Below, piece after piece: positions 1 to 27,443 of a stretch of 33,125 nucleotides of DNA; the first letter of the stretch is position 1, and every line of letters begins with the position of its first letter. The stretch comes from a virus (Duplodnaviria > Heunggongvirae > Uroviricota > Caudoviricetes): the IMG/VR virus record IMGVR_UViG_2718218402_000003. One strand, written 5' to 3'. Position numbers and translations under genes: made by a program. The notes below the pieces were generated by a model. It ran no database searches, was not told the origin of the DNA, and saw nothing but the letters and a program-made list of their open reading frames with translations.

Positions 1-234
1 ATGCCGGGTTACACAGAGTATGTCCTGGCTGAAGGATCTTTCTCATACGGGCAGGCGGTTGCTGTCATAACCGCTTACCGCAATGTGTTTATCCAGGATG
101 ACCCGGGAATGCATTTCCGTCGGGTTATCCGCAACGCGGAAGGTCAGCGACGCTGGCGCTGCCGGAATTCTGAACCCGATGCCGGAAAGGTGCTTAATAC
201 GCGGCTCGCCAGTGACGGTCTTCTCAGACAATAA
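1..234 (+). CDS. Possible 3' fragment of an upstream gene running into the window (partial, unidentified)
   Basis: Open frame from position 1 to a stop at 232-234; no recognisable family; could also be non-coding. Confidence 0.25.
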
Positions 235-333
235 ACGTCATTCATTTCACCCATCAGGCCGCGTCTTCTCCGGGAGACGTGGCTTTTTCATTTATTACAC
301 CAGTAAATCTTAACCACCGATAAGGAGCAAATT

Positions 334-1152
334 ATGCGACTAGCCAGTCGTTTTGGTTATGCGAACCAGATACGCCGTGACCGTCCGCTGACACACGAAG
401 AACTGATGCACTATGTGCCGGGGATTTTCGGGGAAGATAAACACACGTCCCGAAGCCAGAACTATACGTACATCCCCACCATCACCGTACTGGAAAGCCT
501 GCAGCGGGAAGGCTTTCAGCCATTCTTCGCCTGCCAGACCCGTGTGCGCGACCCGGGCCGCCGGGGATACACAAAACACATGCTGCGTCTGCGGCGGGCC
601 GGAGAGATAAACGGAGAACATGTCCCTGAAATTATTCTGCTCAACTCTCATGACGGTACCTCCAGCTACCAGATGCTGCCGGGTTACTTCAGGTTCGTCT
701 GCCAGAACGGATGCGTCTGTGGTCAGTCTCTGGGGGAAGTGCGTGTTCCGCACCGGGGAAATGTGGTGGACAGAGTCATTGAAGGGGCTTACGAGGTGGT
801 GGGGGTTTTTGACCGGATTGAGGAAAAGCGTGATGCCATGCAGTCGCTGATTCTGCCGCCACCGGCACGCCAGGCGCTGGCACAGGCGGCACTGACTTAC
901 CGTTATGGTGACGAACATCAGCCCGTCACCACCGCCGACATTCTGACGCCACGACGCCGGGAGGATTACGGTAAGGACCTGTGGAGTGCTTATCAGACCA
1001 TTCAGGAGAATATGCTGAAAGGCGGAATTTCAGGTCGCAGCGCTAAAGGAAAACGTATCCATACCCGTGCCATTCACAGCATTGACACTGACATTAAGCT
1101 CAACCGCGCATTGTGGGTGATGGCGGAAACGCTGCTGGAGAGCCTGCGCTGA
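334..1152 (+). CDS. DUF932-family protein (YafZ/YfjQ-like) of CP4-type islands
   Basis: 272-aa ORF; sequence and position (immediately upstream of antirestriction/RadC/CbeA/CbtA genes) match the conserved CP4-44/CP4-57/CP4-6 module as I recall it. Confidence 0.7.
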   Translation: MRLASRFGYANQIRRDRPLTHEELMHYVPGIFGEDKHTSRSQNYTYIPTITVLESLQREGFQPFFACQTRVRDPGRRGYTKHMLRLRRAGEINGEHVPEIILLNSHDGTSSYQMLPGYFRFVCQNGCVCGQSLGEVRVPHRGNVVDRVIEGAYEVVGVFDRIEEKRDAMQSLILPPPARQALAQAALTYRYGDEHQPVTTADILTPRRREDYGKDLWSAYQTIQENMLKGGISGRSAKGKRIHTRAIHSIDTDIKLNRALWVMAETLLESLR

Positions 1153-1206
1153 TTCAGCCATTACCCTGAAAACCACGCATTTATTTGTCCTTTAAGGAGT
1201 CATTTC

Positions 1207-1692
1207 ATGAAAACCATTTCACATAATTCCACCACATCTTCTGTTTCCGTAACCGCTGCATCAGGGAATGACCAGCCTCAGCTGGTTGCCACCATAGTCC
1301 CTGATGAACAGCGCATCAGCTTCTGGCCGCAGCATTTTGGCCTCATTCCACAGTGGGTGACCCTAGAGCCCCGTATCTTCGGCTGGATGGACCGTCTTTG
1401 CGAAGACTACTGCGGTGGTATCTGGAATCTGTACACACTGAACAACGGTGGCGCATTTATAGCGCCCGAACCGGATGACGATGATGGCGAAACATGGGTA
1501 CTGTTCAATGCCATGAACGGTAACCGCGCTGAAATGAGCCCGGAAGCCGCCGGCATTGCCGCCTGTCTGATGACGTACAGTCATCATGCCTGTCGTACGG
1601 AGTGTTATGCCATGACGGTCCATTATTACCGGTTGCGGGATTACGCCCTGCAGCATCCGGAATGCAGCGCCATTATGCGCATCATCGACTGA
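1207..1692 (+). CDS. Antirestriction protein, KlcA/ArdB-like (YfjX/YafX family)
   Basis: 161-aa ORF with acidic DDDDGE stretch; conserved position between DUF932 and RadC-like genes. Confidence 0.7.
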   Translation: MKTISHNSTTSSVSVTAASGNDQPQLVATIVPDEQRISFWPQHFGLIPQWVTLEPRIFGWMDRLCEDYCGGIWNLYTLNNGGAFIAPEPDDDDGETWVLFNAMNGNRAEMSPEAAGIAACLMTYSHHACRTECYAMTVHYYRLRDYALQHPECSAIMRIID

Positions 1693-1707
1693 ATGGAGAG
1701 AAGCACA

Positions 1708-2184
1708 ATGCAACAACTTTCCTTTCTGCCCGGAGAGATGACGCCCGGCGAGCGCAGTCTCATTCTGCGGGCCCTGAAAACCCTGGACCGCCATCTTCAT
1801 GAACCCGGCGTGGCCTTCACCTCCACCCGTGCGGCACGGGAATGGCTGATTCTGAACATGGCGGGACTGGAGCGTGAAGAATTCCGGGTGCTGTATCTGA
1901 ATAACCAGAATCAGTTGATTGCCGGTGAAACCCTCTTCACCGGCACCATCAACCGCACGGAAGTCCATCCCCGGGAAGTGATTAAACGCGCCCTGTACCA
2001 CAATGCCGCTGCCGTGGTGCTGGCGCACAATCACCCGTCCGGTGAAGTCACACCCAGCAAGGCAGACCGCCTTATCACGGAACGTCTGGTACAGGCACTG
2101 GGCCTGGTGGATATCCGGGTGCCGGACCATCTGATAGTCGGTGGCAACCAGGTTTTCTCCTTTGCCGAACATGGTCTGCTTTAA
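1708..2184 (+). CDS. RadC-like JAB/MPN domain protein (YeeS/YkfG/YfjY family)
   Basis: HNHPSG JAMM-type motif in translation; GGAGAG Shine-Dalgarno 7 nt upstream of ATG at 1708; the track ORF starts 15 nt earlier at 1693. Confidence 0.85.
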   Translation: MQQLSFLPGEMTPGERSLILRALKTLDRHLHEPGVAFTSTRAAREWLILNMAGLEREEFRVLYLNNQNQLIAGETLFTGTINRTEVHPREVIKRALYHNAAAVVLAHNHPSGEVTPSKADRLITERLVQALGLVDIRVPDHLIVGGNQVFSFAEHGLL

Positions 2185-2246
2185 CCCGTCACAACCACAT
2201 CACGCTTGTTTTCACTTTTATCTTCTGTCTTCAGAGGTATCACACT

Positions 2247-2468
2247 ATGAAAATCATCACCCGTGGTGAAGCCATGCGTATTCACCAACAACATCCGGCA
2301 TCCCGTCTTTTTCCTTTCTGTACCGGCAAATACCGCTGGCACGGCAGCACTGAAGCGTATACCGGTCGTGAAGTGCAGGATATTCCCGGTGTGCTGGCCG
2401 TGTTTGCTGAACGCCATAAGGACAGTTTTGGCCCGTATGTCCGGCTGATGAGCGTCACCCTGAACTGA
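2247..2468 (+). CDS. DUF987-family protein (YeeT-like)
   Basis: 73-aa ORF in the conserved position between RadC-like and antitoxin genes. Confidence 0.65.
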   Translation: MKIITRGEAMRIHQQHPASRLFPFCTGKYRWHGSTEAYTGREVQDIPGVLAVFAERHKDSFGPYVRLMSVTLN

Positions 2469-2630
2469 TGTTCCGTCACCCGGAAAACGAGTACGACCAG
2501 ATGGACTCAGACGCCGCTGTGGATGAGGCCATTCTCGTCAATGCATACATCTTCACCGAAACCGGTCAGCGCGCCGGCTGACCTGTCATCGTTAAACCAT
2601 TCTTAACCACTTTTCAGAGAGGATTTTATC

Positions 2631-2999
2631 GTGTCAGACAAACTCTCCGGGATAACTCATCCCGACGACAATCACGACCGCCCCTGGTGGGGGCTTCCCT
2701 GCACAGTGAGGCCCTGTTTCGGGGCACGTCTGGTGCAGGAGGGTAACCGCCTGCATTACCTTGCCGACCGCGCCGGTATCAGAGGCCTGTTCAGCGATGC
2801 AGATGCGTACCACCTGGACCAGGCCTTTCCGCTGCTGATGAAACAACTGGAACTCATGCTCACCAGCGGTGAACTGAATCCCCGCCATCAGCATACCGTC
2901 ACGCTGTATGCGAAAGGTCTGACCTGCAAAGCTGACACCCTCGGTAGCGGTGGTTACGTTTATCTGGCTGTTTATCCGACGCCCGAAACGAAAAAGTAA
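2631..2999 (+). CDS. cbeA: Type IV antitoxin CbeA (YeeU/YfjZ/YafW family)
   Basis: 122-aa translation near-identical to my recollection of E. coli YeeU ([11 protein letters not shown]...[11 protein letters not shown]); GTG start as given by the track. Confidence 0.85.
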
Positions 3000-3088
3000 A
3001 CCACCGGAATAACCTTCTGCTCCGGCCTGGTGCTTTCACCACGCCACTTTTCCATTTTTCATCTCTGCATATCAGGAAAACCTTCAGT

Positions 3089-3463
3089 ATGAAAACATTA
3101 CCCGATACACACGTACGGGAGGCATCGAGCTGCCCGTCTCCCGTCACCATCTGGCAGACTCTGCTCTCCCGACTACTGGGCCAGCATTACGGCCTTACAC
3201 TGAATGACACACCGTTCGCCGATGAACGTGTGATTGAGCAGCATATTGAAGCTGGCATTTCACTGTGTGATGCGGTGAATTTTCTCGTGGAAAAATACGC
3301 GCTGGTGCGTACCGACCAGCCGGGATTCAGCACTTGTCCCCGCTCTCAGTTAATAAACAGTATTGATATCCTCCGGGCTCGCCGGGCGACCGGCCTGATG
3401 ACCCGCGACAATTACAGAACGGTAAATAACATTACCCTGGGTAAGCATCCGGAGAAACGATGA
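3089..3463 (+). CDS. cbtA: Type IV toxin CbtA (YeeV/YpjF/YkfI family, cytoskeleton-inhibiting)
   Basis: 124-aa ORF immediately downstream of cbeA; recognised family. Confidence 0.85.
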
Positions 3464-3948
3464 AACTTTCCCTGATGCTGGAAGCCAACAGAATTAATGT
3501 GCAGGCACTGAACATGGGGCGAATTGTCGTTGACGTCGATGGTGTTAATCTCACTGAACTGATTAACAAGGTCGCTGAAAACGGTTATTCACTCCGCGTG
3601 GTGGAGGAATCCGACCAACAGTCAACCTGCACACTACCACCGTTTGCAACCCTTGCCGGCATACGCTGCAGTACCGCACATATCACGGAAAAGGATAACG
3701 CCTGGCTGTACTCGCTGTCACACCAGACCAGTGACTTCGGTGAATCAGAATGGATTCATTTCACAGGTAGCGGATATCTGTTACGTACCGATGCGTGGTC
3801 ATATCCGGTTCTGCGGCTTAAACGCCTGGGGCTGTCAAAAACGTTCCGTCGTCTGGTTATCACACTTACCCGACGTTATGGCGTCAGTCTCATTCATCTG
3901 GATGCCAGCGCTGAATGCCTGCCGGGTTTACCCACTTTCAACTGGTAA
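3460..3948 (+). CDS. YeeW-like protein
   Basis: 162-aa ORF overlapping the cbtA stop by 4 nt; conserved position downstream of cbtA. Confidence 0.55.
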
Positions 3949-3959
3949 CCAGGAACAAC

Positions 3960-4157
3960 ATGAAATCATTAACCACGGAAACCGCACTGGATATTCTGAT
4001 TGCGTGGCTGCAGGACAATATCGACTGCGAATCGGGAATTATCTTTGACAACAATGAGGATAAAACGGATTCAGCAGCACTGTTGCCCTGTATCGAACAG
4101 GCCAGAGAGGATATCCGTACCCTGCGCCAACTGCAGCTTCAGCACCAGAACCGGTGA
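3960..4157 (+). CDS. Small hypothetical protein (65 aa)
   Basis: ATG at 3960 (MKSLTTETALDIL...) inside the track ORF 3915-4157; followed by a terminator-like hairpin. Confidence 0.4.
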   Translation: MKSLTTETALDILIAWLQDNIDCESGIIFDNNEDKTDSAALLPCIEQAREDIRTLRQLQLQHQNR

Positions 4158-4199
4158 GTCTCACTCATCATCTCACTCACCAGACTTCATTCCACTGAC

Positions 4200-4230
4200 G
4201 CCAGCCTGAACACGGCTGGCGTTTTCATTT
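4200..4230 (+). terminator. Rho-independent terminator-like hairpin
   Basis: GCCAGCC-tgaacac-GGCTGGC stem-loop followed by GTTTTCATTT. Confidence 0.5.
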
Positions 4231-4253
4231 ATCTGCAAAAAGGAATATCGATT

Positions 4254-4823
4254 ATGTCTGAAATCACAGTCTCCCGTCCGGAAGTGGTCAACGAGAATAC
4301 GGACGTTATCTGCTCCACCTCAGTCAGGTACAGGTCACTGGAATATGATAATTTTCCGGAAATCAGCGAAGCGAACATTCTGAGCACATTTGAACAACTG
4401 CACCAGAACAAAGATGAAGTGTTTGAACGGGGAGTGATCAACGTCTTCAAAGGGCTGAGCTGGGATTACAAAACCAACTCACCCTGTAAATTTGGCAGTA
4501 AAATTATCGTCAACAATCTGGTGAGATGGGACCAGTGGGGATTTCATCTTATCAGTGGAATGCAGGCAGATCGCCTGGCTGACCTGGAAAGAATGTTGCA
4601 TCTGCTCAGCGGTAAACCGATCCCCGACAACCGAGGGAATATCACCATTAATCTGGATGACCACATACAGTCCGTTCAGGGTAAAGGACGCTATGAAGAT
4701 GAGATGTTCATCATTAAATACTTTAAGAAGGGATCTGCACACATCACTTTCAAAAGGCTGGAGCTGATTGACAGAATTAACGATATAATAGCCAGGCACT
4801 TTCCTTCTGTGCTCTCAGCCTGA
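4254..4823 (+). CDS. Hypothetical protein (189 aa)
   Basis: Clean ORF with AGGAATA RBS-like sequence upstream; no family recognised with confidence. Confidence 0.5.
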   Translation: MSEITVSRPEVVNENTDVICSTSVRYRSLEYDNFPEISEANILSTFEQLHQNKDEVFERGVINVFKGLSWDYKTNSPCKFGSKIIVNNLVRWDQWGFHLISGMQADRLADLERMLHLLSGKPIPDNRGNITINLDDHIQSVQGKGRYEDEMFIIKYFKKGSAHITFKRLELIDRINDIIARHFPSVLSA

Positions 4824-4885
4824 CCCCGAGTTTGATTCCCTTTCGATATCAAAAGGGACTGCGGGTACAAAAGAGGGTACATATT

Positions 4886-5125
4886 TCACCAAACCAAACA
4901 AAATAAACTAATATCAACATGATAGAAGCATTCTTCGATTCCGAGTCCGGCACCAAACCCTGCAGCCATTACAGTGAGGTGTGTTGTTTCGCCATTTGGA
5001 TATTCACGCATGATGGTGTTAACTCCGGTCATCACTGGCACTACCATTGCTGGTTCAGAGTTAAAAAAAACTATTATTTTTTTCATAATGTTACCGTAAT
5101 ATGTGAGTATCCATCGACTAGACAC
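4886..5125 (-). CDS. Doubtful small ORF in the AT-rich island/prophage junction
   Basis: 79-aa frame overlapped by an equally plausible plus-strand ORF (4919-5128); neither recognised. Confidence 0.15.
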   Translation of the reverse strand: MSSRWILTYYGNIMKKIIVFFNSEPAMVVPVMTGVNTIMREYPNGETTHLTVMAAGFGAGLGIEECFYHVDISLFCLVW

Positions 5126-5933: not shown

Positions 5934-6957
<1,024 letters not shown>

Positions 6958-6961
<4 letters not shown>

Positions 6962-7269
6962 AGATATTTATGATGAGGACGCTCGTGCTTATTGGCAGGA
7001 TTTTCAATCTTAAAGGAGTACTGATGCTGCAGATAAGACTCAACTTTTTCTGACAATTTTTCTGCTACTTCCAGGAAGACTTGCCGGACGCTCATTCTGG
7101 CTGCTGCCTCATAAAACTCCAGCGCAGCTCCTTCAACACGGTCCATGGCGACATCCAGGCCAAAAATTTCACCGTCAAAGCGTTCTTTGTCCTGTAAGGC
7201 TACAGTTACCGTAACTTTATTCTCAAAATTACGGACTCCTTTCACAACCAGTTCATAGTCTTGAGTCAT
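6958..7269 (-). CDS. ydfR: DUF1327-family protein (YdfR-like)
   Basis: 103-aa ORF between holin and lysozyme, as in Qin. Confidence 0.6.
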
Positions 7270-7273
7270 TGGA

Positions 7274-7489
7274 TTACTCTCCTCTCGCAGCCTTACGCCT
7301 GTCTTCTTTAATCTTGAAATAAAGATTTGTCAGATACGTCAGCATGCCAAATACCAGACTACCCAATACACCTATTGCCGCCCACTGTGAGGGCGTGACT
7401 TTATCGAGCAACTGTAAAAACCAGTAGCCAGCACTGCCTGCAGAGGTGCTGTAGGCGATGCCCGTTGTTAACTTATCCATGGATTTCAT
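7274..7489 (-). CDS. essQ: Class II holin (EssQ/EssD-like)
   Basis: 71 aa from ATG at 7489 ([13 protein letters not shown]...) preceded by GGAGGTGA Shine-Dalgarno; the track ORF is extended upstream. Confidence 0.8.
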
Positions 7490-7679
7490 AGCCTCACCTC
7501 CGCAGATAACGGATGGTGTACACGGTTTGGTTCGAAGAAGGAAAGAAGTTACATTAGCGTAAGGCCCGAACATCTATTCAAAAAGAAAAACGCCAGCAAT
7601 TATTCTGGCGTAGCTAAAAATATCGTATAATCTTACACTTCAAAAAATAACTTTATAAAATGCCATCACATCATATCTT

Positions 7680-8402
7680 CTAAGAAAATCTTGATAAATA
7701 TTGGTGCGGAGGCACACCAAAATATCCTCTAAAAACACTTACAAAATATGATGCATTGTCATACCCGCATATTCCCGCCACCTTGCCGACAGTATGGTTA
7801 CTGTAGATCAATAATCTTTGCGCCATCATCATTCGTTCTTCAAGAATTAATTTACTAAACGATAATCCTTCGTCTTTTAATTTTCTTTTTAACAAACTCT
7901 CGCTCATATATAATCTTGAAGATATATCACAAAGTCTCCATGACGCTGAGATATCCGAGTGAATAATAGCCTTAACTTTACAACCTAAGCTATTAAGACT
8001 TCCGAACAAAAAACTTTGCACCATTTTCTCTGAAGATAAGACAGCAAGACATGCAAGTGATATTTGATTGCTAACTACATCCACGGTTTTGCTATCACAA
8101 TTCAAGCATGCAACCAAGTTCTTTAACAATGAAAAATCTTCACATTCTACTATCAAGTATGACGGATAAAACCTTCTTACAGAAAAAGGTGAGAGTGTGT
8201 AGTTTTTAAAGAAATCATTAACTGTTTTCTCCTCAACATCTACGATCATTAGATGATCTGTATTTGACGAAAAAAGATCTTTTAAATTGTATTCAATGAG
8301 GACAGCATTTCCTTTTTTAAACAAAATATCTTCTTTACCAATTCGGACACCAAACGAGTTCAACACCAAAATGATAGAACATATGTATGGCATATTATCC
8401 AC
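7680..8402 (-). CDS. AraC-family transcriptional regulator (AppY/EnvY/PerA-like)
   Basis: 240 aa with C-terminal AraC-type HTH region; gene is markedly AT-rich relative to flanks. Confidence 0.75.
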   Translation of the reverse strand: MDNMPYICSIILVLNSFGVRIGKEDILFKKGNAVLIEYNLKDLFSSNTDHLMIVDVEEKTVNDFFKNYTLSPFSVRRFYPSYLIVECEDFSLLKNLVACLNCDSKTVDVVSNQISLACLAVLSSEKMVQSFLFGSLNSLGCKVKAIIHSDISASWRLCDISSRLYMSESLLKRKLKDEGLSFSKLILEERMMMAQRLLIYSNHTVGKVAGICGYDNASYFVSVFRGYFGVPPHQYLSRFS

Positions 8403-8799: not shown

Positions 8800-9759
8800 T
8801 TAATTCACCATCAGTCTTAGAGCCAGTTCTTCCGGATAGGGATCGAAGTAATTCTGTGTAAGCAAGTAATCATTAGGATACTCACCCAGATAATGCTTCA
8901 GCAGAGTCAACGGCGCAAGAAGAGGCAATGTGCCAAAGCGATAGTTAAGTATAACCTCGCTCAACTCTTTACGCTGGCGTGTACTTAAGTAATTACTAAA
9001 ATACCCCTGTATATGCATCAGCACATTCGTGTGATTTTTACGTGATGCTGGTTTTCTGAGAATCGCCATCAGATTATCACGATACACCTCAAAGTATGAT
9101 TCAAGGTCCGCCCACTCGTGTATTGCAGCCACAAATGGTCCCATATCTTTATAGCCTGCCTGGCTATGCGCCAACAACTGAAGCTTATAACGACTATGAA
9201 AAGCTAATAACTCTCTTCTTGATAATTTCTCCTTGTAAAGGTGATTGAGCTCATGCAAAGCAAAAACTCTTTCAATAAAATTCTCACGAAGCACTGGATC
9301 ATGTAATCGCCCATCCTCTTCAACCGGTAGCCAGGAAAACTTTTCCATCAAAGTGCTCGTAAATAGTCCCACTCCATCTTTACGACCTCGATTACCATTT
9401 TCATCATAGACACGCACGCGCTCCATGCCACAGCTGGGAGATTTAGCACAAACCACAAACCCCGATACATCCTTTAATTTGTCCATATAAGAACGACTAA
9501 ACTCTGTCATTCTCTCTGTCACATCCTCATTCTGGTCGTGGCTGAAACACATCCGTATATTTCCTTGCTTCGAGCGCACAAGTCGTAGAGCAGGACGCGG
9601 AACTGGCAGCCCTATAGCCATTTCCGGACATACTGGTCTGAATGTTACCCATTCCACTAATTTGTCCATTAAAAAGTCATCTCTTTTGTGACCACCATCA
9701 AAACGAACAGCAGAACCGCCCAAACAACCGCTGATCCCAATCACAGGTTTTTTTATCAT
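8800..9759 (-). CDS. Fused DUF523/DUF1722 protein (YbgA-like; DUF523 domain resembles thiouracil desulfurase family)
   Basis: 319 aa; N-terminal GISGCLGG...RFDGGH motif; GGAGGA Shine-Dalgarno upstream of ATG. Confidence 0.6.
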   Translation of the reverse strand: MIKKPVIGISGCLGGSAVRFDGGHKRDDFLMDKLVEWVTFRPVCPEMAIGLPVPRPALRLVRSKQGNIRMCFSHDQNEDVTERMTEFSRSYMDKLKDVSGFVVCAKSPSCGMERVRVYDENGNRGRKDGVGLFTSTLMEKFSWLPVEEDGRLHDPVLRENFIERVFALHELNHLYKEKLSRRELLAFHSRYKLQLLAHSQAGYKDMGPFVAAIHEWADLESYFEVYRDNLMAILRKPASRKNHTNVLMHIQGYFSNYLSTRQRKELSEVILNYRFGTLPLLAPLTLLKHYLGEYPNDYLLTQNYFDPYPEELALRLMVN

Positions 9760-10160
9760 TTCCTCCCCCTTGACTAATTCATTAACACATAAACTTTGTA
9801 GTGCACGGACTAAATTGCCTTTCTGGCTTCATCACTGACAATTTTTCTGTTATTGACTATTCCTAATATAGTAGGAAAGTTCTTTAAGTGATCGGTCGTA
9901 CTCATCTATCTTTCATACTTACTCTCAACTATCAAAAGTACAGGATTTATTATGAAGTTATGGCCTGTGTTGACTGGCATTGCACTCTCTTTCACTCTTA
10001 TAGCATGTAAGGCCCCGACACCACCTAAAGGTGTGCAGCCGATTACAAATTTTGACGCCAACCGCTACCTCGGAAAATGGTATGAAATAGCTCGCTGATC
10101 TTACCCAGCAATAGTGGACACGCGGCTAAGTGAGTAAACTCTCAGTCAGAGGTGACTCAC

Positions 10161-10460
10161 ATGACAAAAACAGTATCAACCAGTAAAAAACCCCGTAAAC
10201 AGCATTCGCCTGAATTTCGCAGTGAAGCCCTGAAGCTTGCTGAACGCATCGGTGTTACTGCCGCAGCCCGTGAACTCAGCCTGTATGAATCACAGCTCTA
10301 CAACTGGCGCAGTAAACAGCAAAATCAGCAGACGTCTTCTGAACGTGAACTGGAGATGTCTACCGAGATTGCACGTCTCAAACGCCAGCTGGCAGAACGG
10401 GATGAAGAGCTGGCTATCCTCCAAAAGGCCGCGACATACTTCGCGAAGCGCCTGAAATGA
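10161..10460 (+). CDS. insE: IS3 OrfA (InsE-like)
   Basis: 99 aa from ATG 10161; HTH plus leucine-zipper-like region. Confidence 0.85.
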
Positions 10461-11323
10461 AGTATGTCTTTATTGAAAAACATCAGGCTGAGTTCAGCAT
10501 CAAAGCAATGTGCCGCGTGCTCCGGGTGGCCCGCAGCGGCTGGTATACGTGGTGTCAGCGGCGGACAAGGATAAGCACGCGTCAGCAGTTCCGCCAACAC
10601 TGCGACAGCGTTGTCCTCGCGGCTTTTACCCGGTCAAAACAGCGTTACGGTGCCCCACGCCTGACGGATGAACTGCGTGCTCAGGGTTACCCCTTTAACG
10701 TAAAAACCGTGGCGGCAAGCCTGCGCCGTCAGGGACTGAGGGCAAAGGCCTCCCGGAAGTTCAGCCCGGTCAGCTACCGCGCACACGGCCTGCCTGTGTC
10801 AGAAAATCTGTTGGAGCAGGATTTTTACGCCAGTGGCCCGAACCAGAAGTGGGCAGGAGACATCACGTACTTACGTACAGATGAAGGCTGGCTGTATCTG
10901 GCAGTGGTCATTGACCTGTGGTCACGTGCCGTTATTGGCTGGTCAATGTCGCCACGCATGACGGCGCAACTGGCCTGCGATGCCCTGCAGATGGCGCTGT
11001 GGCGGCGTAAGAGGCCCCGGAACGTTATCGTTCACACGGACCGTGGAGGCCAGTACTGTTCAGCAGATTATCAGGCGCAACTGAAGCGACATAATCTGCG
11101 TGGAAGTATGAGCGCAAAAGGTTGCTGCTACGATAATGCCTGCGTGGAAAGCTTCTTTCATTCGCTGAAAGTGGAATGTATCCATGGAGAACACTTTATC
11201 AGCCGGGAAATAATGCGGGCAACGGTGTTTAATTATATCGAATGTGATTACAATCGGTGGCGGCGGCACAGTTGGTGTGGCGGCCTCAGTCCGGAACAAT
11301 TTGAAAACCAGAACCTCGCTTAG
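10457..11323 (+). CDS. insF: IS3 OrfB transposase (InsF-like, DDE catalytic domain)
   Basis: 288 aa in the -1 frame relative to orfA with TGA/ATG overlap; matches IS3 InsF as I recall it. Confidence 0.9.
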
Positions 11324-11765
11324 GCCTGTGTCCATATTACGTGGGTAGGATCACGCCTCGAGAACTGGTTCGAACGTGGTCTGGAACAGGTCAGCGCTAC
11401 TTATGAAAAACGGAACGACGGAGGGATTCGCGTACTTAACCGTGGATACGATCCAACGAAAAACAAATGGAGCGAGAGCGAAGGTAAAGCATACTTTACT
11501 GGAGATACTAAAACTGCAGCGTTGAAAGTTTCGTTTTTTGGCCCCTTCTATGGTGGCTATAATGTAATCAAACTGGATGATGAGTATAAGTATGCTCTTG
11601 TCAGTGGTCCGAACAGAGAATACCTATGGATTCTGGCAAGGACCCAAACTATTCCAGATAATGTAAAAGCAGACTATGTGCGTACCGCTCAAAAGTTGGG
11701 ATTCAATGTCAATGAACTATTATGGGTTAAACAATAAAATCCCCACCCGAAATGATACTTATTAG

Positions 11766-11792
11766 AAAAAAACCAGCCTTTGGGGAGGCTGG
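11766..11792 (-). terminator. Terminator-like hairpin between blc 3' end and Q gene (probably bidirectional)
   Basis: A-run, then CCAGCCT-ttgggg-AGGCTGG; a T-run follows on the minus strand. Confidence 0.45.
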
Positions 11793-11892
11793 CTAAATCA
11801 GGAAACAAGCTGTTATATGATAATAACTACGTTGCGATTCCAACATTTAAAATGTTAGACTAATGAAAATCAGACAGCAACTTTTCCTTTAA

Positions 11893-12270
11893 TTATTTCG
11901 AACAATCAGCATCCATCTCCAATCGGAGATCCAACACCATCAGCATGCCCTCCACTACGCCCTCAGCTTTCTGGAGCATCCTGCCAACCCAACAATCAGA
12001 TCGCCCATGCTTACGTGCAAGCGCCATAAAAGTCATGCCGCCGACATAATAGTTCACCAATAAATCATGTAAATCGCTGTTGTTTTTTTTCAGGCGAGCC
12101 ATACATTCACAAATGATCATCGCGTCATCGTCACAGCATTGCGGACGAGATCTTACTTTTGAAGGAATTAATCCCTTAAAACCGGCGGCAATGGACGACC
12201 AGGTCACATCTTCATGATTATTAGCCGCCCATGCCCCCCAACGCTCAAGAACCATCTGAATATCACGCAT
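11893..12270 (-). CDS. quuQ: Late-gene antiterminator Q (QuuD/QuuQ, phage-82 Q family)
   Basis: From [26 protein letters not shown]..., matching DLP12/Qin Q proteins as recalled; sits upstream of the lysis/cargo region. Confidence 0.8.
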
Positions 12271-12287
12271 CAACTTACTCCACAAAA

Positions 12288-13337
12288 TTAGGCCAGCACA
12301 CCAATTGCCAGCGCGCGATCGATAAATCGAAAAATCAGCTCCAGTTGGGAGCCATACTTCTCTTCAAATGCCACGGTATCCGTATGCAACTCGTCGTGAT
12401 GCTTTCTGCACAAAGGCAAAACAAAGAGATCATGTGCTTTGGTTCCCATTCCGCCCTGCCCGTGACTAATCAGATGATGCGGATCGTCGGCTGGCATACC
12501 GCAGCAAGCACACGGCTGTGTCTTAACCCAGCGTGTGTATTTCTCCTTAACCCACCGGTGACGTTTAGGCAGCTTCATGAAAGATTCCGGAGACTCTGGA
12601 TCAACGGTGATGCTTACCACCGTCTTTTCCTGTGATGGGTTTTGTTGCTGGTGGGCGTGAGGCAACGGTGCAAGATTTTTTGTGCACTGTTTCAATATGC
12701 TGGTGGCGGTCTGCTCTCCCGGTACGATGTCGCTTTCGCGGTACACCGAGCAGATTTTTTCCGCTGGTAATCCCAGCGAGCGACGTAATACCGCTTCCGG
12801 TAGCGCGTCCGCCAGCTGATTGCGGACCGCCCACCAGGATAATTCAGCCAGAGATAATTCACGCTCCTGCGTACCGCTTATTGCGTGACCGATGACGTCA
12901 ATCATCCATGCTGACAGGTTTTGATGAGCAAGTTGCTCGAGTGATTCGGATGTCTGGTCACGCAGCTGGTTGTCGCAGTGCCAGCACAACACCATTGCGC
13001 CGGTACCATATCGGTGAATAACGGTTTCGCTGTGATGATAATCGCCGTGTGGCCACTGGCAGGATTTAATATGGCGCAACAGCCAGTCAGACAATGCACC
13101 AGCACCACCAGCAGCACGAATTACCCGTGCGTTACTGAAAAACGGCAGCAATGTTTTGTCTTCCACCAGCGGCTGGCGAACGGCAGGAACGACCCCGGAC
13201 GGCAGATTACGCATGCTTTTCGGTTCCGGCTCCACCAGTACCCGGGTATTGTGGAATACCGGCATGGATTCACGGCCCGGCTTAACGACCACCAGCCCGA
13301 GTTCCGGTACCAGAACAGGTCGAAGTAATACCCGCAC
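12288..13337 (-). CDS. ydfU: DUF968-family protein (YdfU-like)
   Basis: 349-aa ORF directly upstream of Q, as in Qin; start codon not verified. Confidence 0.6.
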
Positions 13338-14231: not shown

Positions 14232-14906
14232 AGCCTGCTTCTCCTTGCCTTTCGGCACGTAAGAGGCTAACCTAGATTTGCCGTTCATAGATTGAGCCTC
14301 AGATTAATGTTAAGCGTCTTGCAGGACGCGTAATGTTAACTGGGGCTTTTCTCTATCTGCCGTTGGTGTTCATGCCTGAGACAGATAGCCTCAAGCACCC
14401 GCAGCCATTCTACTTAACTCCCGTCACCTCGCCAATATGAAATCAGTCAGAAAGGCGATCCATAAGAACAACAGCAAGGCAATAAATTGCCATTACAGCA
14501 GCAATAGCCAGCGCACATTTGAGAACCAGCACCACAACCTCCTGTATTGGACGTACACCAGTCCTGATAAATATGAGGCTGTCTCGTCAGTGATTCAATA
14601 CAACTATTGGGTATAGTTTCTGTGATTTTGTTCTGTAGAAATGGAACACAACAACCAGTCACCACCAGCACTTCTTTAAATACGCCAAGTCCGACGCAAG
14701 CTAACCTTCTAGGCCGCTTTGAGCGAAGAGCGGACGCTCGCATCTGTCCCAACACACTGAGGGCTTCACGAACACCTAGGTGTACTCGTCAACTGGGAAA
14801 AAGTCAGATTATCTGTAAGCGTACAGCCTGAACCGTCTGGTCAGAATCTGACGAATTAGACAAAGTGGTGTCCACCAAATAAGTAGTGGGAACCAAAGTA
14901 TCAGAT

Positions 14907-15287
14907 ATGCAGAAAAATGTGACTCCCGGCAGGCGAAAAGGCTGCCCTAATTATCCTCCCGAATTTAAACAGCAGCTCGTTGCTGCCTCCTGTGAACCCG
15001 GGATATCCATCTCAAAACTTGCTCTTGAAAATGGCATTAACGCCAATCTGTTGTTCAAATGGCGACAACAATGGCGCGAGGGAAAGCTGCTATTACCTTC
15101 TTCAGAGAGCCCCCAGCTACTTCCTGTGACTCTCGATGCAGCTGCCGAACAGCCAGAATCGCTCGCAGAGGACCCGGAAACCCTCAGTATCAGCTGTGAG
15201 GTAACGTTCCGGCACGGGACGCTCCGCTTCAATGGCAATGTCAGCGAAAAGCTCCTGACTCTGCTGATACAGGAACTGAAGCGATGA
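14907..15287 (+). CDS. IS66-family TnpA (orf1)
   Basis: ATG at 14907 (MQKNVTPGRRKG...); the track start at 14886 is a GTG. Confidence 0.8.
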   Translation: MQKNVTPGRRKGCPNYPPEFKQQLVAASCEPGISISKLALENGINANLLFKWRQQWREGKLLLPSSESPQLLPVTLDAAAEQPESLAEDPETLSISCEVTFRHGTLRFNGNVSEKLLTLLIQELKR

Positions 15288-15631
15288 TCCCGTTACCTTC
15301 CGGGACCAAAATTTGGCTGGTTGCCGGTATCACCGATATGAGAAATGGCTTCAACGGCCTGGCTGCGAAAGTACAAACGGCGCTGAAAGACGATCCCATG
15401 TCCGGCCATGTTTTCATTTTCCGGGGCCGCAGCGGCAGTCAGGTTAAACTGCTGTGGTCCACCGGTGACGGACTGTGCCTCCTGACCAAACGGCTGGAGC
15501 GTGGGCGCTTCGCCTGGCCGTCAGCCCGTGATGGCAAAGTGTTCCTTACGCAGGCGCAGCTGGCGATGCTGCTGGAAGGTATCGACTGGCGACAGCCTAA
15601 GCGGCTGCTGACCTCCCTGACCATGCTGTAA
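15284..15631 (+). CDS. IS66-family TnpB (orf2)
   Basis: 115 aa, overlapping tnpA stop; characteristic IS66 orf2. Confidence 0.85.
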
Positions 15632-15680
15632 ATCTCTTTATCCTGGTTGTCACAGAATAAGCCCGGTAAAATACGGGCTT

Positions 15681-17219
15681 ATGAACGACATCTCTTCTGA
15701 CGACATCTTCCTGCTGAAACAGCGCCTGGCCGAACAGGAAGCGCTGATCCACGCCCTGCAGGAAAAGCTGAGCAACCGGGAGCGCGAAATAGACCATCTG
15801 CAGGCGCAGCTGGATAAACTCCGCCGGATGAACTTCGGCAGTCGTTCCGAAAAAGTCTCCCGCCGTATCGCACAAATGGAAGCCGATCTGAACCGGCTTC
15901 AGAAAGAGAGCGATACGCTGACTGGTAGGGTGTATGACCCGGCAGTACAGCGTCCGTTGCGTCAGACCCGCACCCGTAAGCCGTTCCCTGAATCACTACC
16001 CCGTGACGAAAAGCGACTGTTGCCTGCGGCGCCGTGCTGCCCGAACTGCGGCGGTTCACTGAGCTATCTGGGCGAGGATACCGCCGAACAGCTGGAGTTG
16101 ATGCGTAGCGCCTTCCGGGTTATCCGGACGGTACGGGAAAAACATGCCTGTACTCAGTGCGATGCCATCGTGCAGGCACCTGCACCTTCGCGGCCCATCG
16201 AGCGGAGTATCGCCGGACCGGGGCTGCTGGCCCGCGTGCTGACCTCGAAGTATGCAGAGCACACCCCGCTGTATCGCCAGTCAGAAATATACGGCCGGCA
16301 AGGTGTGGAGCTGAGGCGTTCACTGCTGTCGGGCTGGGTGGATGCATGCTGCCGGCTGCTGTCTCCGCTGGAAGAGGCGCTTCATGGCTATGTCATGACT
16401 GACGGCAAACTCCATGCCGATGATACCCCGGTCCAGGTACTGCTGCCGGGTAATAAGAAGACGAAGACCGGGCGGTTGTGGGCGTATGTTCGTGATGACC
16501 GCAATGCAGGGTCAGCGTTGGCACCTGCAGTGTGGTTCGCTTACAGCCCGGACAGAAAAGGCATCCATCCGCAGACTCATCTTGCCTGCTTCAGCGGTGT
16601 GCTGCAAGCGGATGCGTACGCCGGGTTCAACGAGCTGTATCGCAATGGTGGGATAACGGAAGCTGCCTGCTGGGCTCATGCCCGCCGAAAGATCCACGAT
16701 GTGCACGTCCGCATCCCGTCAGCACTGACGGAAGAAGCCCTGGAGCAGATCGGTCAGTTGTACGCCATAGAGGCGGATATAAGGGGAATGCCGGCAGAGC
16801 AGCGGCTTGCTGAACGTCAGCGAAAAACGAAACCGTTGTTGAAATCCCTGGAAAGCTGGTTGCGTGAAAAGATGAAGACCCTGTCGCGACACTCAGAGTT
16901 GGCGAAGGCGTTCGCGTACGCACTTAACCAGTGGCCGGCACTGACGTACTATGCGAACGATGGCTGGGTGGAAATCGACAACAACATCGCTGAAAATGCC
17001 CTGCGGGCGGTCAGTCTGGGTCGTAAAAACTTCCTGTTCTTCGGCTCTGACCATGGTGGTGAGCGGGGAGCGCTACTGTACAGCCTGATCGGGACGTGCA
17101 AACTGAATGACGTGGATCCAGAAAGCTACCTTCGCCATGTGCTTGGCGTCATAGCAGACTGGCCGGTCAACCGGGTCAGCGAACTGCTTCCGTGGCGCAT
17201 AGCACTGCCAGCTGAATAA
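15681..17219 (+). CDS. IS66-family transposase TnpC
   Basis: 512 aa with N-terminal leucine zipper, CxxC...CxxC zinc finger and DDE region. Confidence 0.9.
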
Positions 17220-17280
17220 CACATCCCCGTCAATACGGCCCTCGCTGTACGCTTACGATTATCTGCGTAAGTTTCAGCGT

Positions 17281-17329: not shown

Positions 17330-20300
17330 CTATGTATCTGAGCCAAACATAGAGCGCCGCCTTGTTATTTTATAATAAGTGGGATTTTCATTATCCACCT
17401 CAAAATCAGAGAAGAAGTGGTTATCTCTTAATGCTGTTAATAAACTTTGATTAGTTGAATCAACTTCAATTTTAGGTTTGCCTCGCCCCAAAATTTTACT
17501 GAACTCCGATAAACCAAGCAGATCAAGATACTCTTTGCAAGTCGTCTTACTCAAATCCTTACCCGGCAACAAAGCGATTAGCAGTGCTATTTTATTCTGC
17601 ATATTCAGTCCCTCTGCGACAAACAGGTTTTTTAGTAACGGTTCAGAAACATCATTAGGACTTGCTATCAATGCTGATATATCCTGTATTGCTCGACTCA
17701 AGATGAGCGACTGAGTAGAGGTTCCCCAAGTTTTATAAGATGACGTCAAGATTAGAAGTTCATCTGGTTTAAAATTATTTTCTAAAATATAGTCATTAAC
17801 GACCTGAGAGTAATTCTTACTATAAATAGCCAACGGAGTTTTAACAAACTCGAGTAGCTTAACTTTCAAATCATCATCAACTTTCCAAGAAAGTATTGAT
17901 ATAGCCTCATCCAAAATAAAGTTATCAATCGTCATTAATTCAACGTATGCCCTGATATTCTTATGAATATAATAGGAAAGTTGCTCTGAATAGTTATCTC
18001 GTATGAAATTAAGTGGCGCAACATTCATACGAATAATATTTTTATCCACTAATATTTTGAACTTATCACTCGCGATATTACTAGCGCTAAAGGATGTTTT
18101 ACAAATAATATTTAGTGAGCAAATTAATTTTTCATATTTATCATTTGATAAATCATTACAGATAACAATCGATTTAAATAATTTACCTTTAAGCTCGTTA
18201 TCAATATTAATATTTTGAAAATTCAGGTCTACATCAGTTCTATTGATAAATTCGATAAGTGAGTCATCCAGTCCATCAACATGTTCAAAATAAGAGACAA
18301 TATTTTCCTCAGAGCACACTGCTCTATCTTTATCCAACAAAGATGACCATAAAGATTCGCTCTCAACCTCACTCAGAGATGTCACGAAAGTTTGCAAAGC
18401 GTTTATATACTGGCCTTTTTGTTCATCAGATATTCCCTCATTATTAAGAACGGATAAAACAATGGATTCATCATCCACGATTGAACCATCACAACTAGAT
18501 AAAACCATATCCAGATAGTCCCTAATATGGTTATTAACATAACTAGCCAAGGGAGAATCAGGTTGTGACATCACTAGTGTATAGTTCTTATGGCGAATAT
18601 CATCTTCACTATTAAGCGTGTAAACCTTACTCAGCATTAAGGTCAGGTTGGAAAAATTAATATCATAAAGTGAATGCTGGTAAACCGCATCAAAGAGTAC
18701 TTTATTTGCGTTTTCAAATTTAATACTGACAAAAGAAACGTTAAGCAACTTAAAACCACTAATTAATTTGTCAACCTTCGGTTCTGATATTGCTAAATAA
18801 CCTGCCGAATCAGAGATGTAATCAGTCAGACAATCATCAATATTAATGGCCTCGATGGCGTCATTGGCAGAATAATAAAACGTGCCTATAGAGTAGAGTT
18901 TAACCCAATCAGCAGAAAATTCACTCTCTGTCAGCGCATAAGAAAAAAACTCAGGCCACTGTGTATTTAATCGATTAATGAAGACAGGCTGAGCCCTCTC
19001 AGTTTCAAAGTAACCACGAATAAACTCAACTCTTCTATCTTTTCTTAGTTGTTTGAATAAACGTTTTATTAAGTTTACCTGGGCTGGCGTTTGAAGCAGA
19101 TAAGCTAATAAATCAAAATTAAGCGCCTCTTCCTGTTCAAAATCCACTTCTCGAAGGCGGGCAACGACCAGCTTGGGGTTCTTGAGTTGATAAGTGAACT
19201 CTTTGCCTTTTTGATCGGTAATGCTGCGTAAAAACATCTTATCAATTCGACTCAGGCTATTTTCATAAAAATAGGTCATATAGTCGGTATAGGTTTCATC
19301 AATATAACCATCACGAATAAGGTATTTAAGCAAGTCAAAATACTCACTGCTTTTTATTTCATTAAAGTCTCTTTCCTCTCCAATTTCATTGGTATAGGTG
19401 AGTTTAAATATTTCATCAATGTTTTCTCTAGTTATTACTTCTTTAAGTCTTTTGTTTCTAGAATCAACCAAACTTTCTCTTGATCTTGATATAAGCTCAT
19501 TAATTTCTTCTATTTTACCATTAAATTTATTTTCAACACTTTCTTTTCTAGCCGCCCTTCTCTTTGCTATATCAGCTTTCTCAGCCTGATTATAGTGAGG
19601 ATGATTATTATATCTAGATAATTCCTTATCGTATATAGCATCAACCTCCTGACTAGAGTTGAGTATTTCATCATTGATTGCCTCAATCTCTTTTTTTCTA
19701 TCTCTAATATCTTTTTCTATTTTCTTTATTTCTTCAATAATAAGGTTGTCTTTTTCACTAAATATGGTATAAACCATACCTTGATTAAGTTGCAACTCAC
19801 TAAAATCTCTTGGGAAAATATTCTTATAGGCAATAATGGCCAACATTTTATTACAGTCAAGTTCTGTCGTGTTTAATTTGTTATAATAAATTTGAAATTC
19901 GTTATAAATATTCTTCAATATTCTCATATCATCAATATATAAAGACATCCCTTGTAGAAATCTTTCATTGAACAACTTGAGAATACCACCACCATCAAAA
20001 TGTGTGATAAACTGATCGTAAGAGTTAGAACTATCAACAACAGGAATAACTGGAATGATATAATCAAAGAATTTGGTTCTATCCTTCGAAATGAAGATAT
20101 CATCACGAAGCAAGTAAATAAAACGTAACGTCGATTTCTTGTGCCCTGCTGTGTCCCGTTGAATATTAACCAGTCTGTTAACCTCATGAAGACGTTCAAA
20201 GATGTTATTACTATTAAAACGGTCCATGTCTTCAAAAACAATGGCATCAGCATCAACGTTCTCGAAAAGGTACAATACTTCATTTAAATATCTATCGAAA

Positions 20301-20962
20301 TAAGACTCGTTACTTTCTTCAAAAATCTCTATTTCATTACCCTGTAAATTTATTTTCTTAAGAACATTACGATTCTTTTGGGTTTTTATTAACTTGTAAA
20401 TGAAAATACAAGATAGGATAGTACATATAAACCCACTAATTAAAAGCGTATCGTATTTAGTTGATAATGTAAGTAGTGTCTTTATATTACCTTCAGATAA
20501 AAGTGAAACAAACTTTTCCCACTTATTAAATAGCGTGATATGTAGTATCATAGCGATAAATAACACCGTAAAGATGGTGTTTATCACAATGTTGTTAGTT
20601 TTTATTTTTTTCTTTACTTTAAAATGTGTCTGGGGAATATCATCAGCATTAATTTGGTGAATTAACTGGTTAAGAACTTTACCTTCTAACGCGGTTTCAT
20701 TTATATCTTTACTTGGTTCATTAGTTTCAGCTTCCTCAATCGATCTGAAATGAGCAAGTGAGATATGAACAAACTTTATATTTGAATGACTTTTCTTATA
20801 GGATTCGATAAGACTACTTTTTCCTGCGCTATATTGCCCTGATATCGCAACATTTTTTAGATCGTTATTGGCAAAAACAAAATCTATCGCATTTTTATAT
20901 ACACCCAGCTCAACATCGCTGAACGGCGTTAACTTTTGAAATTTATAGCTATCATCACTCAT
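17330..20962 (-). CDS. Large (1210 aa) membrane-inserted P-loop NTPase, KAP/YobI-like; candidate stand-alone phage-defence or abortive-infection protein
   Basis: Walker A GQYSAGKS (aa 42-49, nt about 20816-20839), two predicted TM helices (aa about 125-145 and 172-192) between Walker A and Walker B IVFEDMD (aa 241-247); coiled-coil-like segment aa about 400-500; about 950 aa of unassigned C-terminal sequence; strongly AT-rich by eye; SD GGAAGGGA upstream; own terminator. CDS is certain, function is inferred. Confidence 0.6.
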   Translation of the reverse strand: MSDDSYKFQKLTPFSDVELGVYKNAIDFVFANNDLKNVAISGQYSAGKSSLIESYKKSHSNIKFVHISLAHFRSIEEAETNEPSKDINETALEGKVLNQLIHQINADDIPQTHFKVKKKIKTNNIVINTIFTVLFIAMILHITLFNKWEKFVSLLSEGNIKTLLTLSTKYDTLLISGFICTILSCIFIYKLIKTQKNRNVLKKINLQGNEIEIFEESNESYFDRYLNEVLYLFENVDADAIVFEDMDRFNSNNIFERLHEVNRLVNIQRDTAGHKKSTLRFIYLLRDDIFISKDRTKFFDYIIPVIPVVDSSNSYDQFITHFDGGGILKLFNERFLQGMSLYIDDMRILKNIYNEFQIYYNKLNTTELDCNKMLAIIAYKNIFPRDFSELQLNQGMVYTIFSEKDNLIIEEIKKIEKDIRDRKKEIEAINDEILNSSQEVDAIYDKELSRYNNHPHYNQAEKADIAKRRAARKESVENKFNGKIEEINELISRSRESLVDSRNKRLKEVITRENIDEIFKLTYTNEIGEERDFNEIKSSEYFDLLKYLIRDGYIDETYTDYMTYFYENSLSRIDKMFLRSITDQKGKEFTYQLKNPKLVVARLREVDFEQEEALNFDLLAYLLQTPAQVNLIKRLFKQLRKDRRVEFIRGYFETERAQPVFINRLNTQWPEFFSYALTESEFSADWVKLYSIGTFYYSANDAIEAINIDDCLTDYISDSAGYLAISEPKVDKLISGFKLLNVSFVSIKFENANKVLFDAVYQHSLYDINFSNLTLMLSKVYTLNSEDDIRHKNYTLVMSQPDSPLASYVNNHIRDYLDMVLSSCDGSIVDDESIVLSVLNNEGISDEQKGQYINALQTFVTSLSEVESESLWSSLLDKDRAVCSEENIVSYFEHVDGLDDSLIEFINRTDVDLNFQNINIDNELKGKLFKSIVICNDLSNDKYEKLICSLNIICKTSFSASNIASDKFKILVDKNIIRMNVAPLNFIRDNYSEQLSYYIHKNIRAYVELMTIDNFILDEAISILSWKVDDDLKVKLLEFVKTPLAIYSKNYSQVVNDYILENNFKPDELLILTSSYKTWGTSTQSLILSRAIQDISALIASPNDVSEPLLKNLFVAEGLNMQNKIALLIALLPGKDLSKTTCKEYLDLLGLSEFSKILGRGKPKIEVDSTNQSLLTALRDNHFFSDFEVDNENPTYYKITRRRSMFGSDT

Positions 20963-25665: not shown

Positions 25666-27116
25666 AACAGTTCCGTAATAAATATCCGGTTTCATTCTTA
25701 TATGCCAGCAATGGCAGGGATTTGTTCATCCTTAAATCTGTCATGAGGTTAAAACAAATGAGTAAAGTCTTTATTTGCGCCGCTATTCCTGACGAACTGG
25801 CAACAAGGGAAGAAGGCGCTGTGGCTGTAGCCACAGCCATTGAAGCTGGCGACGAACGCCGTGCTCGAGCAAAATTTCACTGGCAATTCCTGGAACATTA
25901 TCCGGCTGCTCAGGACTGCGCTTATAAATTTATTGTCTGCGAGGATAAACCTGGCATACCCCGCCCTGCCCTCGATTCATGGGATGCTGAATATATGCAG
26001 GAAAACCGCTGGGATGAGGAGTCTGCTTCTTTTGTCCCGGTTGAGACTGAATCCGATCCGATGAACGTCACTTTTGACAAGCTGGCCCCTGAAGTACAGA
26101 ACGCTGTCATGGTTAAGTTCGACACATGTGAAAAAATCACCGTTGATATGGTTATTAGCGCACAGGAATTGTTGCAGGAAGACATGGCAACATTCGACGG
26201 ACATATCGTTGAAGCGTTGATGAAAATGCCAGAAGTTAACGCCATGTATCCGGAGCTTAAGTTGCACGCCATTGGGTGGGTTAAGCATAAATGTATTCCT
26301 GGTGCTAAATGGCCCGAAATTCAGGCAGAGATGCGCATCTGGAAAAAACGTCGCGAAGGTGAACGCAAGGAAACCGGAAAATACACGTCTGTTGTTGATC
26401 TCGCCCGCGCCAGAGCCAATCAACAGTACACTGAAAATTCAACAGGAAAAATCAGCCCGGTCATTGCTGCCATTCATCGCGAATACAAGCAGACATGGAA
26501 AACACTGGATGACGAACTGGCCTACGCTCTCTGGCCTGGTGATGTGGATGCTGGAAACATTGACGGCAGCATCCATCGCTGGGCAAAAAAAGAAGTTATC
26601 GACAACGACCGCGAAGACTGGAAGCGTATCTCGGCATCAATGCGCAAACAGCCTGATGCCCTTCGCTACGACCGCCAAACTATTTTTGGCCTTGTCCGTG
26701 AGCGTCCGATCGACATTCACAAAGATCCCGTAGCACTGAACAAATATATCTGCGAATACCTGACGACAAAGGGCGTGTTTGAGAATGAAGAAACAGACCT
26801 GAGCACTGTTGATGTTCTCCAGTCATCAGAAACACAAACTGATGCAGTGGAAACTGAGGTATCTGATATCCCAAAAAATGAAACCGCGCCGGAAGCTGAA
26901 CCATCTGTAGAGCGTGAGGGGCCGTTCTATTTCCTCTTCGCAGATAAGGACGGAGAAAAATACGGTCGCGCAAACAAACTTTCTGGTCTGGATAAGGCAC
27001 TGGCTGCTGGCGCCACTGAAATCACAAAAGAAGAATATTTTGCCCGAAAAAATGGCACATACTGAACCGCCCCGGGAATCCTGGAGACTAAACTCCCTGA
27101 GAAAGAGGTAAACAGG

Positions 27117-27443
27117 ATGACTAAAAATACACGTTTTTCCCCCGAGGTCCGTCAACGGGCAGTTCGTATGGTTCTGGAAAGTCAGGGCGAATATGACTCA
27201 CAATGGGCGGCAATTTGTTCCATTGCCCCAAAGATTGGCTGTACGCCAGAGACTCTGCGAGTGTGGGTTCGTCAGCATGAACGGGATACCAGGAGTGGTG
27301 ATAGTGGACTCACCACCGCTGAACGTCAGCGTCTGAAAGAGCTGGAACGTGAAAATCGTGAACTGCGCCGCAGTAACGATATCCTTCGCCAGGCTTCCGC
27401 TTATTTTGCGAAGGCGGAGTTCGACCGCCTCTGGAAAAAATAA
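27117..27443 (+). CDS. IS629-like OrfA
   Basis: 108 aa [22 protein letters not shown]... Confidence 0.85.

Follow-up and report, generated by a model that had tools for sequence, protein, structure and literature searches.

The lipocalin gene in the window, by which the whole stretch of 33,125 nucleotides in the Caudoviricetes record IMGVR_UViG_2718218402_000003 is meant, is almost certainly a pseudogene left by transposition of IS3 into codon 48/49 of a prophage-borne gene of the Blc subfamily. The gene is found as two fragments on the plus strand. ORF reading assigns codons 1–48 to the 5' fragment (9952..10095, +), which encodes the signal peptide and a lipobox, L-I-A-C, with Cys19. The ORF that starts with the ATG at 9952 is 48 codons long and ends at a TGA stop codon (10096-10098) that IS3 itself provides with its first three bases. 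The 3' fragment (11357..11737, +) is 126 codons long and features codons 49–174 and the stop codon. It has an in-frame TAG upstream at 11321 and no ATG, GTG or TTG before 11522, so that the earliest in-frame start codon is the TTG at that position. The two fragments are separated by a complete IS3 of 1258 bp (10096..11353, +) that is flanked by a duplicated CGC triplet. The left copy (10093..10095) is codon 48, an arginine, and the right copy (11354..11356) immediately precedes the 3' fragment; both were read from the sequence and confirmed with a scripted check.

Reconstruction of the uninterrupted gene

The sequence-only reading had described a Blc-like ORF that is split exactly at the IS3 ends (10096-11353) with CGC on both sides, and all of these coordinates are confirmed. 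It had also proposed that excision of IS3 and one CGC would restore the reading frame. When 9952-10095 is fused to 11357-11737, the resulting 525 nt, a multiple of three, contain no internal stop codon and encode a 174-residue protein that reads ...GKWYEIAR|LENWFERGLE... across the join, as had been predicted. Offsets of 0–6 were tried at the junction, and the sequence is in frame only with 0, 3, and 6. An offset of 3, in which one CGC is removed, is the only one that gives a known lipocalin protein.

The decisive evidence for the insertion comes from uninterrupted alleles. The excised locus of 1040 nt, which includes both intergenic flanks, is 100% identical, in a single piece, to uninterrupted loci in many complete E. 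coli genomes. An uninterrupted allele in related strains had been anticipated by the sequence-only reading, and sequence comparison locates these empty sites in many E. coli genomes. With the excised locus as a probe, 1147 genomes match. Coverage in a single place reaches 80% or more in 1030 of them, and identity reaches 99% or more in 413. The lipocalin gene at these empty sites is annotated as "lipocalin family protein", the restored 174-residue protein is identical to the annotated intact protein WP_000780584.1, and the uninterrupted allele features exactly one CGC at the insertion position. Since both the restored locus and the restored protein match uninterrupted alleles, the lipocalin gene was intact until the insertion of IS3. 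It has to be considered that IS copies are a classic source of misassembly and that a 3-bp match of the flanks, which is expected by chance in 1/64 of cases, is not decisive alone. An assembly artefact, or a recombination between two IS3 copies with a coincidental CGC match, is nevertheless extremely improbable. The two flanks adjoin each other in more than 1000 genomes and fit together perfectly after excision, the identical structure is present in an independent complete genome (strain 19KM2326N), and non-adjacent flanks would be expected from a recombination between two IS copies.

IS3 belongs to the IS3 family and moves by a copy-out/paste-in pathway with a DDE transposase that is produced by a programmed -1 frameshift. 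By analogy with this family, an IS3 copy would have transposed into codon 48/49 of the lipocalin gene, and staggered cleavage of the target followed by gap repair would have duplicated the 3-bp CGC. The in-frame TGA supplied by IS3 at once limits the product to a 48-residue stub, which consists of the signal peptide and 29 further residues. The residual 126 codons have neither a usable start codon nor a signal peptide, so that a pseudogene is left. The event is placed in an ancestor that is shared with the prophage of strain 19KM2326N, and the insertion is recent, since its flanks do not differ from those of intact alleles and IS3 itself is intact. The sequence-only reading regarded the locus as direct evidence of an in-situ transposition that inactivated the gene. 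The 48-residue stub and the 3' piece that lacks a start codon before the TTG at 11522 argue strongly for a loss of function, although as a prediction from the sequence and not as direct evidence. The chromosomal blc gene lies outside of the window, is probably still present in the source strain, and could conceal whatever phenotype the insertion has.

The IS3 copy and its occurrence in strain 19KM2326N

The boundaries of the element were determined with a scripted check and by comparison with IS3A of E. coli K-12 and ten other copies, and the transposase is co-oriented with the lipocalin gene. The ends of the element are 5'-TGATCTTACCC...GGGTAGGATCA-3', with TGATC...GATCA at the outermost positions. 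They form an imperfect inverted repeat in which 28 of the first 39 terminal positions of the left repeat (10096..10134, +; TGATCTTACCCAGC...) match the reverse complement of the right repeat (11315..11353, +; ...GGGTAGGATCA). The first ORF, orfA (10161..10460, +), encodes a 99-residue InsE protein with an HTH_Tnp_1 domain (Pfam PF01527) that is identical to InsE1 of K-12. The second, orfB (10457..11323, +), lies in the -1 frame and encodes a 288-residue InsF protein with a DDE/rve catalytic domain (Pfam rve, 5.1e-28; NCBIfam transpos_IS3, 339 bits), which differs from InsF1 of K-12 only by Q285K (287/288 residues match). The two ORFs overlap at ATGA, and the A-AAA-G slippery motif of this overlap region, read from the sequence as CCAAAAGG, is located upstream (10423..10427, +). 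The programmed -1 frameshift of IS3, which leads to the OrfAB transposase, takes place at the A-AAA-G motif, and the same IS3 copy in strain 19KM2326N is labelled "programmed frameshift" by PGAP.

Positions 4-1258 of the element show three mismatches to IS3A of K-12 (99.76% identity over 1255 bp), and the ten other annotated E. coli copies are 99.7–99.9% identical to it. Judged by its sequence, the inserted element is IS3 itself (IS3 family, IS3 group) and it is complete. The identification made in the sequence-only reading is thus borne out by the sequence, the ends, the ORFs, and the 3-bp duplication, all of which agree. The ORFs and ends of this copy are intact, which makes transposition competence plausible, and the copy is apparently functional and probably still mobile.

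A probe that covers the whole interrupted locus has a single-piece match in one of 5426 complete genomes, NZ_CP151038.1 from strain 19KM2326N, which was isolated from dog caecum in Switzerland. Two junction probes of 120 nt each find the same sole genome. The locus in this strain (AACG45_RS14195-14205) fully agrees with the window in where IS3 is inserted, in its orientation, and in the CGC duplication. PGAP annotates it as an IS3 transposase between two partial lipocalin pseudogene pieces, of which the 3' piece is described as "lipocalin family protein, missing N-terminus". The interrupted allele is therefore already public and correctly annotated. The window and NZ_CP151038.1 are 99.97% identical over 9.86 kb spanning IS3. 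The IS3 copy of 19KM2326N differs from the window copy by one nucleotide, a private change at position 1044. Among the 11 IS3 copies compared, the synonymous variant 994A is common only to the window and 19KM2326N. The identical junction together with the shared 994A indicates that the transposition occurred once, in a common ancestor of both prophage alleles. The sequence-only reading had proposed an in-situ transposition; this holds for the site, but the event is assigned to an ancestor, as shown by the identical junction and IS variant in 19KM2326N. The IS3/CGC junction provides a clean lineage marker that is common to 1 of 5426 complete genomes.

The window does not derive from strain 19KM2326N itself. 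This identification was rejected because the two differ by one nucleotide in IS3 and in their DNA to the left of 4955, and because the window has an additional IS66-family element and its IS629-like element is located elsewhere. The IS66-family element (14815-17256) has a length of 2442 bp and the ends GTAAGCG...CGCTTAC, and its TnpA, TnpB, and TnpC ORFs span 14886-17219. It is bordered on both sides (14807-14814 and 17257-17264) by the 8-bp duplication GATTATCT, which is intact, whereas 19KM2326N lacks the element at the equivalent position. An element of 1310 bp (27063-28372; TGAACCGCCCCGG...CCGGGGCGGTTCA) is located in the region of the prophage exonuclease gene and is flanked by a 3-bp duplication, TAC, at 27060-27062 and 28373-28375. 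This element is tentatively identified as IS629 (IS629/IS1203-like) by its end sequences and length and not by a database match. The same IS type is also present in 19KM2326N, at a different position.

These differences bear on whether the transposition took place in the strain's own lineage. The prophage segment may instead have come from another strain, already interrupted, through homologous recombination or prophage exchange. Mosaicism is pronounced among lambdoid prophages, and 19KM2326N has the same allele in a setting that differs from the window in its IS66-family and IS629-like content and to the left of 4955. However, the identity of 99.85–99.97% over ~14.5 kb around IS3 is consistent with vertical inheritance and subsequent gains of IS elements. 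Acquisition is accordingly viewed as the weaker account, with a modest share of the probability, and it would alter only where the event happened and not its nature. Insertion of IS3 into the lipocalin gene of an ancestral prophage remains the preferred reading.

Distribution of IS3 insertions in the lipocalin neighbourhood

The allele in the window is one of several IS3 insertions in this gene. Among 17 mapped loci from E. coli strains, 13 distinct site/orientation events lie inside the 525-bp lipocalin gene, the event in the window included. Insertions in the plus orientation are found at nt 57 (duplication TGT), nt 134 (TGA), nt 144 (CGC, the window allele), nt 153 (AAC), nt 214 (GGA), nt 216 (ATT), and nt 439 (CTA), and insertions in the minus orientation at nt 31 (TTG), nt 65 (CCC), nt 375 (TAT), and nt 502 (ATG). 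The remaining two events are both located at nt 172 (TGG), one in each orientation: the same target triplet is used in opposite directions in two unrelated strains, isolate AB56 (L009) and strain M23917 (L018). Clean 3-bp duplications also flank each of the 15 further IS3 insertions that were mapped within or close to the gene. Further insertions were mapped at the 3' end of Q and in the YbgA-like gene, the latter in the whole B/BL21/REL606 lineage. In REL606, the IS3 copy in the YbgA-like gene (1501-2758 of locus L003) has the target duplication TAT, and its distance upstream from the start of the lipocalin gene is 336 nt. The lipocalin gene of the B/BL21/REL606 lineage is intact, and a second IS3 is located near cspI in the same prophage.

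Some of these alleles are annotated as intact genes. In GF31 (L006), 300490 (L015), EP91B (L016), and PK8276 (L019), IS3 lies near one end of the gene and PGAP calls the remainder an intact "blc" CDS. In GF31, EP91B, and PK8276, where the insertion follows nt 57 or nt 31, this CDS uses an alternative start beside IS3. A signal peptide is probably missing from such CDSs, which are likely to be pseudogenes that were mis-called as intact.

There are two ways to read this recurrence. IS3 insertions may recur because the lipocalin/YbgA-like region is a preferred target, or because its loss is advantageous, with the window allele as one instance. The number of distinct events among so few sampled loci and the use of nt 172 in both directions point in this direction, as do the genome counts, in which IS3 is present in the lipocalin neighbourhood in 93 genomes with the forward probe and 49 with the reverse probe, of ~1147 carriers. 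Additionally, IS3 is otherwise a rare transposer that accounts for 10 of 758 new insertions in mutation-accumulation lines (PMC5009759). A preferred target or selection, if true, would explain at least 13 independent insertions by a rarely moving element.

The comparison with a control stretch weakens this argument. Within this control, cspI-rzpQ, which belongs to the same prophage, forward IS3 is nearby in 54 of 2147 genomes, so that forward IS3 is found in 8.1% of carriers at the lipocalin locus and 2.5% at the control, an excess of only ~3-fold in raw counts that ignore clonality and are inflated at both stretches by clonal laboratory strains such as B/BL21 derivatives. A unique IS3 hotspot was rejected on these grounds, as the control is also IS3-rich and the lipocalin locus is at most moderately enriched. 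No target consensus is visible among the 14 duplicated triplets. An apparent orientation bias, in which all first-mapped insertions were alike, proved to be an artefact of the probe, which joins only same-strand pieces; the probe with the IS reversed gave the 49 additional genomes and the five reverse insertions inside the lipocalin gene. Dispensable prophage DNA is also expected to tolerate IS insertions. A search of the literature on IS3, lipocalin, prophage or Qin hotspots found nothing specific to the lipocalin locus. The conservative reading is one in which IS3 accumulates across a dispensable prophage, and it leaves a specific hotspot or selection as possible but not established. A recurrence that is driven by target preference or by an advantage of loss appears doubtful for the window allele, and the same tentative standing is given to the broader proposal that IS3 prefers as its target the moron genes that follow Q in Qin-like prophages (lipocalin, YbgA-like, and AraC-like), or that disruption of this block is repeatedly selected in E. 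coli. The recurrent insertions alone are of possible wider interest, for the target choice of IS elements or for prophage domestication.

The prophage lipocalin and its known relatives

The lipocalin gene is assigned, from gene order and sequence, as an accessory ("moron") gene of a defective Qin-like lambdoid E. coli prophage, located between the antiterminator gene Q and the lysis cassette. The order ydfU-Q-[lipocalin]-ybgA-like-AraC-like-holin-ydfR-lysozyme-rzpQ is the same in the window and in annotated relatives and, together with the cspI, hokD, dicB, and ydfA-type genes of the latter, it identifies the prophage as Qin-like and lambdoid. The location between Q and the lysis genes and the presence of the gene in viable coliphages indicate that it is a moron. 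The analysis of neighbouring ORFs places the DUF968/YdfU gene at 12288-13337 on the minus strand. Q (11893..12285, -; Pfam Phage_antitermQ, 1.1e-50) is convergent with the lipocalin gene. On the other side, domain searches reveal a YbgA-like moron gene with a 2-thiouracil desulfurase domain and DUF1722 (8800..9759, -), an AraC-like regulator (7680-8402), and the holin, YdfR, lysozyme, and RzpQ genes (5934-7573). The lipocalin gene and the late operon are encoded on opposite strands. A consensus promoter scan upstream of 9952 found no strong promoter. The sole terminator found is on the minus strand, where a sequence scan detected a hairpin with a T-run that resembles an intrinsic terminator just downstream of Q (11771..11794, -). 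By lambdoid gene order, this hairpin is probably a tR'-type terminator of the prophage late promoter.

The prophage is truncated at ~4955, inside the equivalent of ynfN. It adjoins a region there (1-4954 of the window) with genes that are characteristic of CP4-type integrative islands (DUF932, antirestriction protein, RadC, CbtA toxin, and DUF4942) and that replace the packaging and head genes of 19KM2326N. The early region of the prophage includes a 1210-residue ORF (17330-20962, -) with a YobI-like P-loop NTPase domain (8.3e-123), the equivalent of which in 19KM2326N is annotated as two hypothetical proteins; this ORF is a possible cargo gene of the defence type.

In Pfam, the restored lipocalin matches Lipocalin_2 (PF08212, 7.5e-43), and it scores 312.6 bits against the NCBIfam subfamily model NF007786, "outer membrane lipoprotein Blc", with a cut-off of 267. 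Blc chains in the PDB are matched with E values of 1e-65 to 1e-67. The lipoprotein signal peptide and lipobox, MKLWPVLTGIALSFTLIA-C19, were read directly from the sequence, and the cysteine aligns with that of VVAC in K-12 Blc. There is, however, a discrepancy with the name blc that was given to the gene by the sequence-only reading. The subfamily is supported by the NF007786 score, but the restored protein is only 58.6% identical in amino acids (62% in nucleotides) to chromosomal K-12 Blc (b4149). This low identity and the different genomic location do not agree with orthology, and the interrupted gene is, on sequence grounds, a prophage-borne paralogue of the Blc subfamily and not chromosomal blc. 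The case shows that "blc" matches in E. coli can be prophage paralogues.

Chromosomal Blc (b4149; PDB 1QWD, 2ACO, 3MBT) is an outer-membrane lipocalin lipoprotein encoded beside ampC. It shares with the prophage protein the Lipocalin_2 family and an NCBIfam Blc score above the cut-off. The chromosomal protein has 177 residues and the prophage lipocalin 174, and both feature a signal peptide and a lipobox cysteine, whereas the genes are located in gdx-blc-ampC and between Q and the lysis genes, respectively. The literature, as summarised in PMC8177097, links chromosomal Blc to the stress response and to lysophospholipid binding. The closest phage counterparts are the proteins named "Lipocalin Blc" of viable lambdoid coliphages (the Lambda_ev series, phage 1H12, and IdasGreatGrand), which are 96–97% identical in amino acids over the full length. 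The copies in these coliphages are intact, whereas the copy in the window is interrupted.

An IS3 insertion with a target duplication in a dispensable prophage gene is an ordinary event of an already known kind, and the single insertion, a textbook IS event, matters very little by itself. The element resembles IS3 of E. coli K-12 (IS3A-E; insE/insF) in the A-AAA-G motif, the imperfect TG...CA ends, and the 3-bp duplication. In K-12 MG1655 (315229-316483), the alignment of IS3A begins at IS position 4 and the preceding bases are GCC and not TGA. This start and the lack of a duplication agree with the annotated 1255 bp and with a left end that is either rearranged or truncated. IS3A of K-12 thus lacks the first 3 bp and the duplication, whereas the copy in the window is complete and its duplication is intact.
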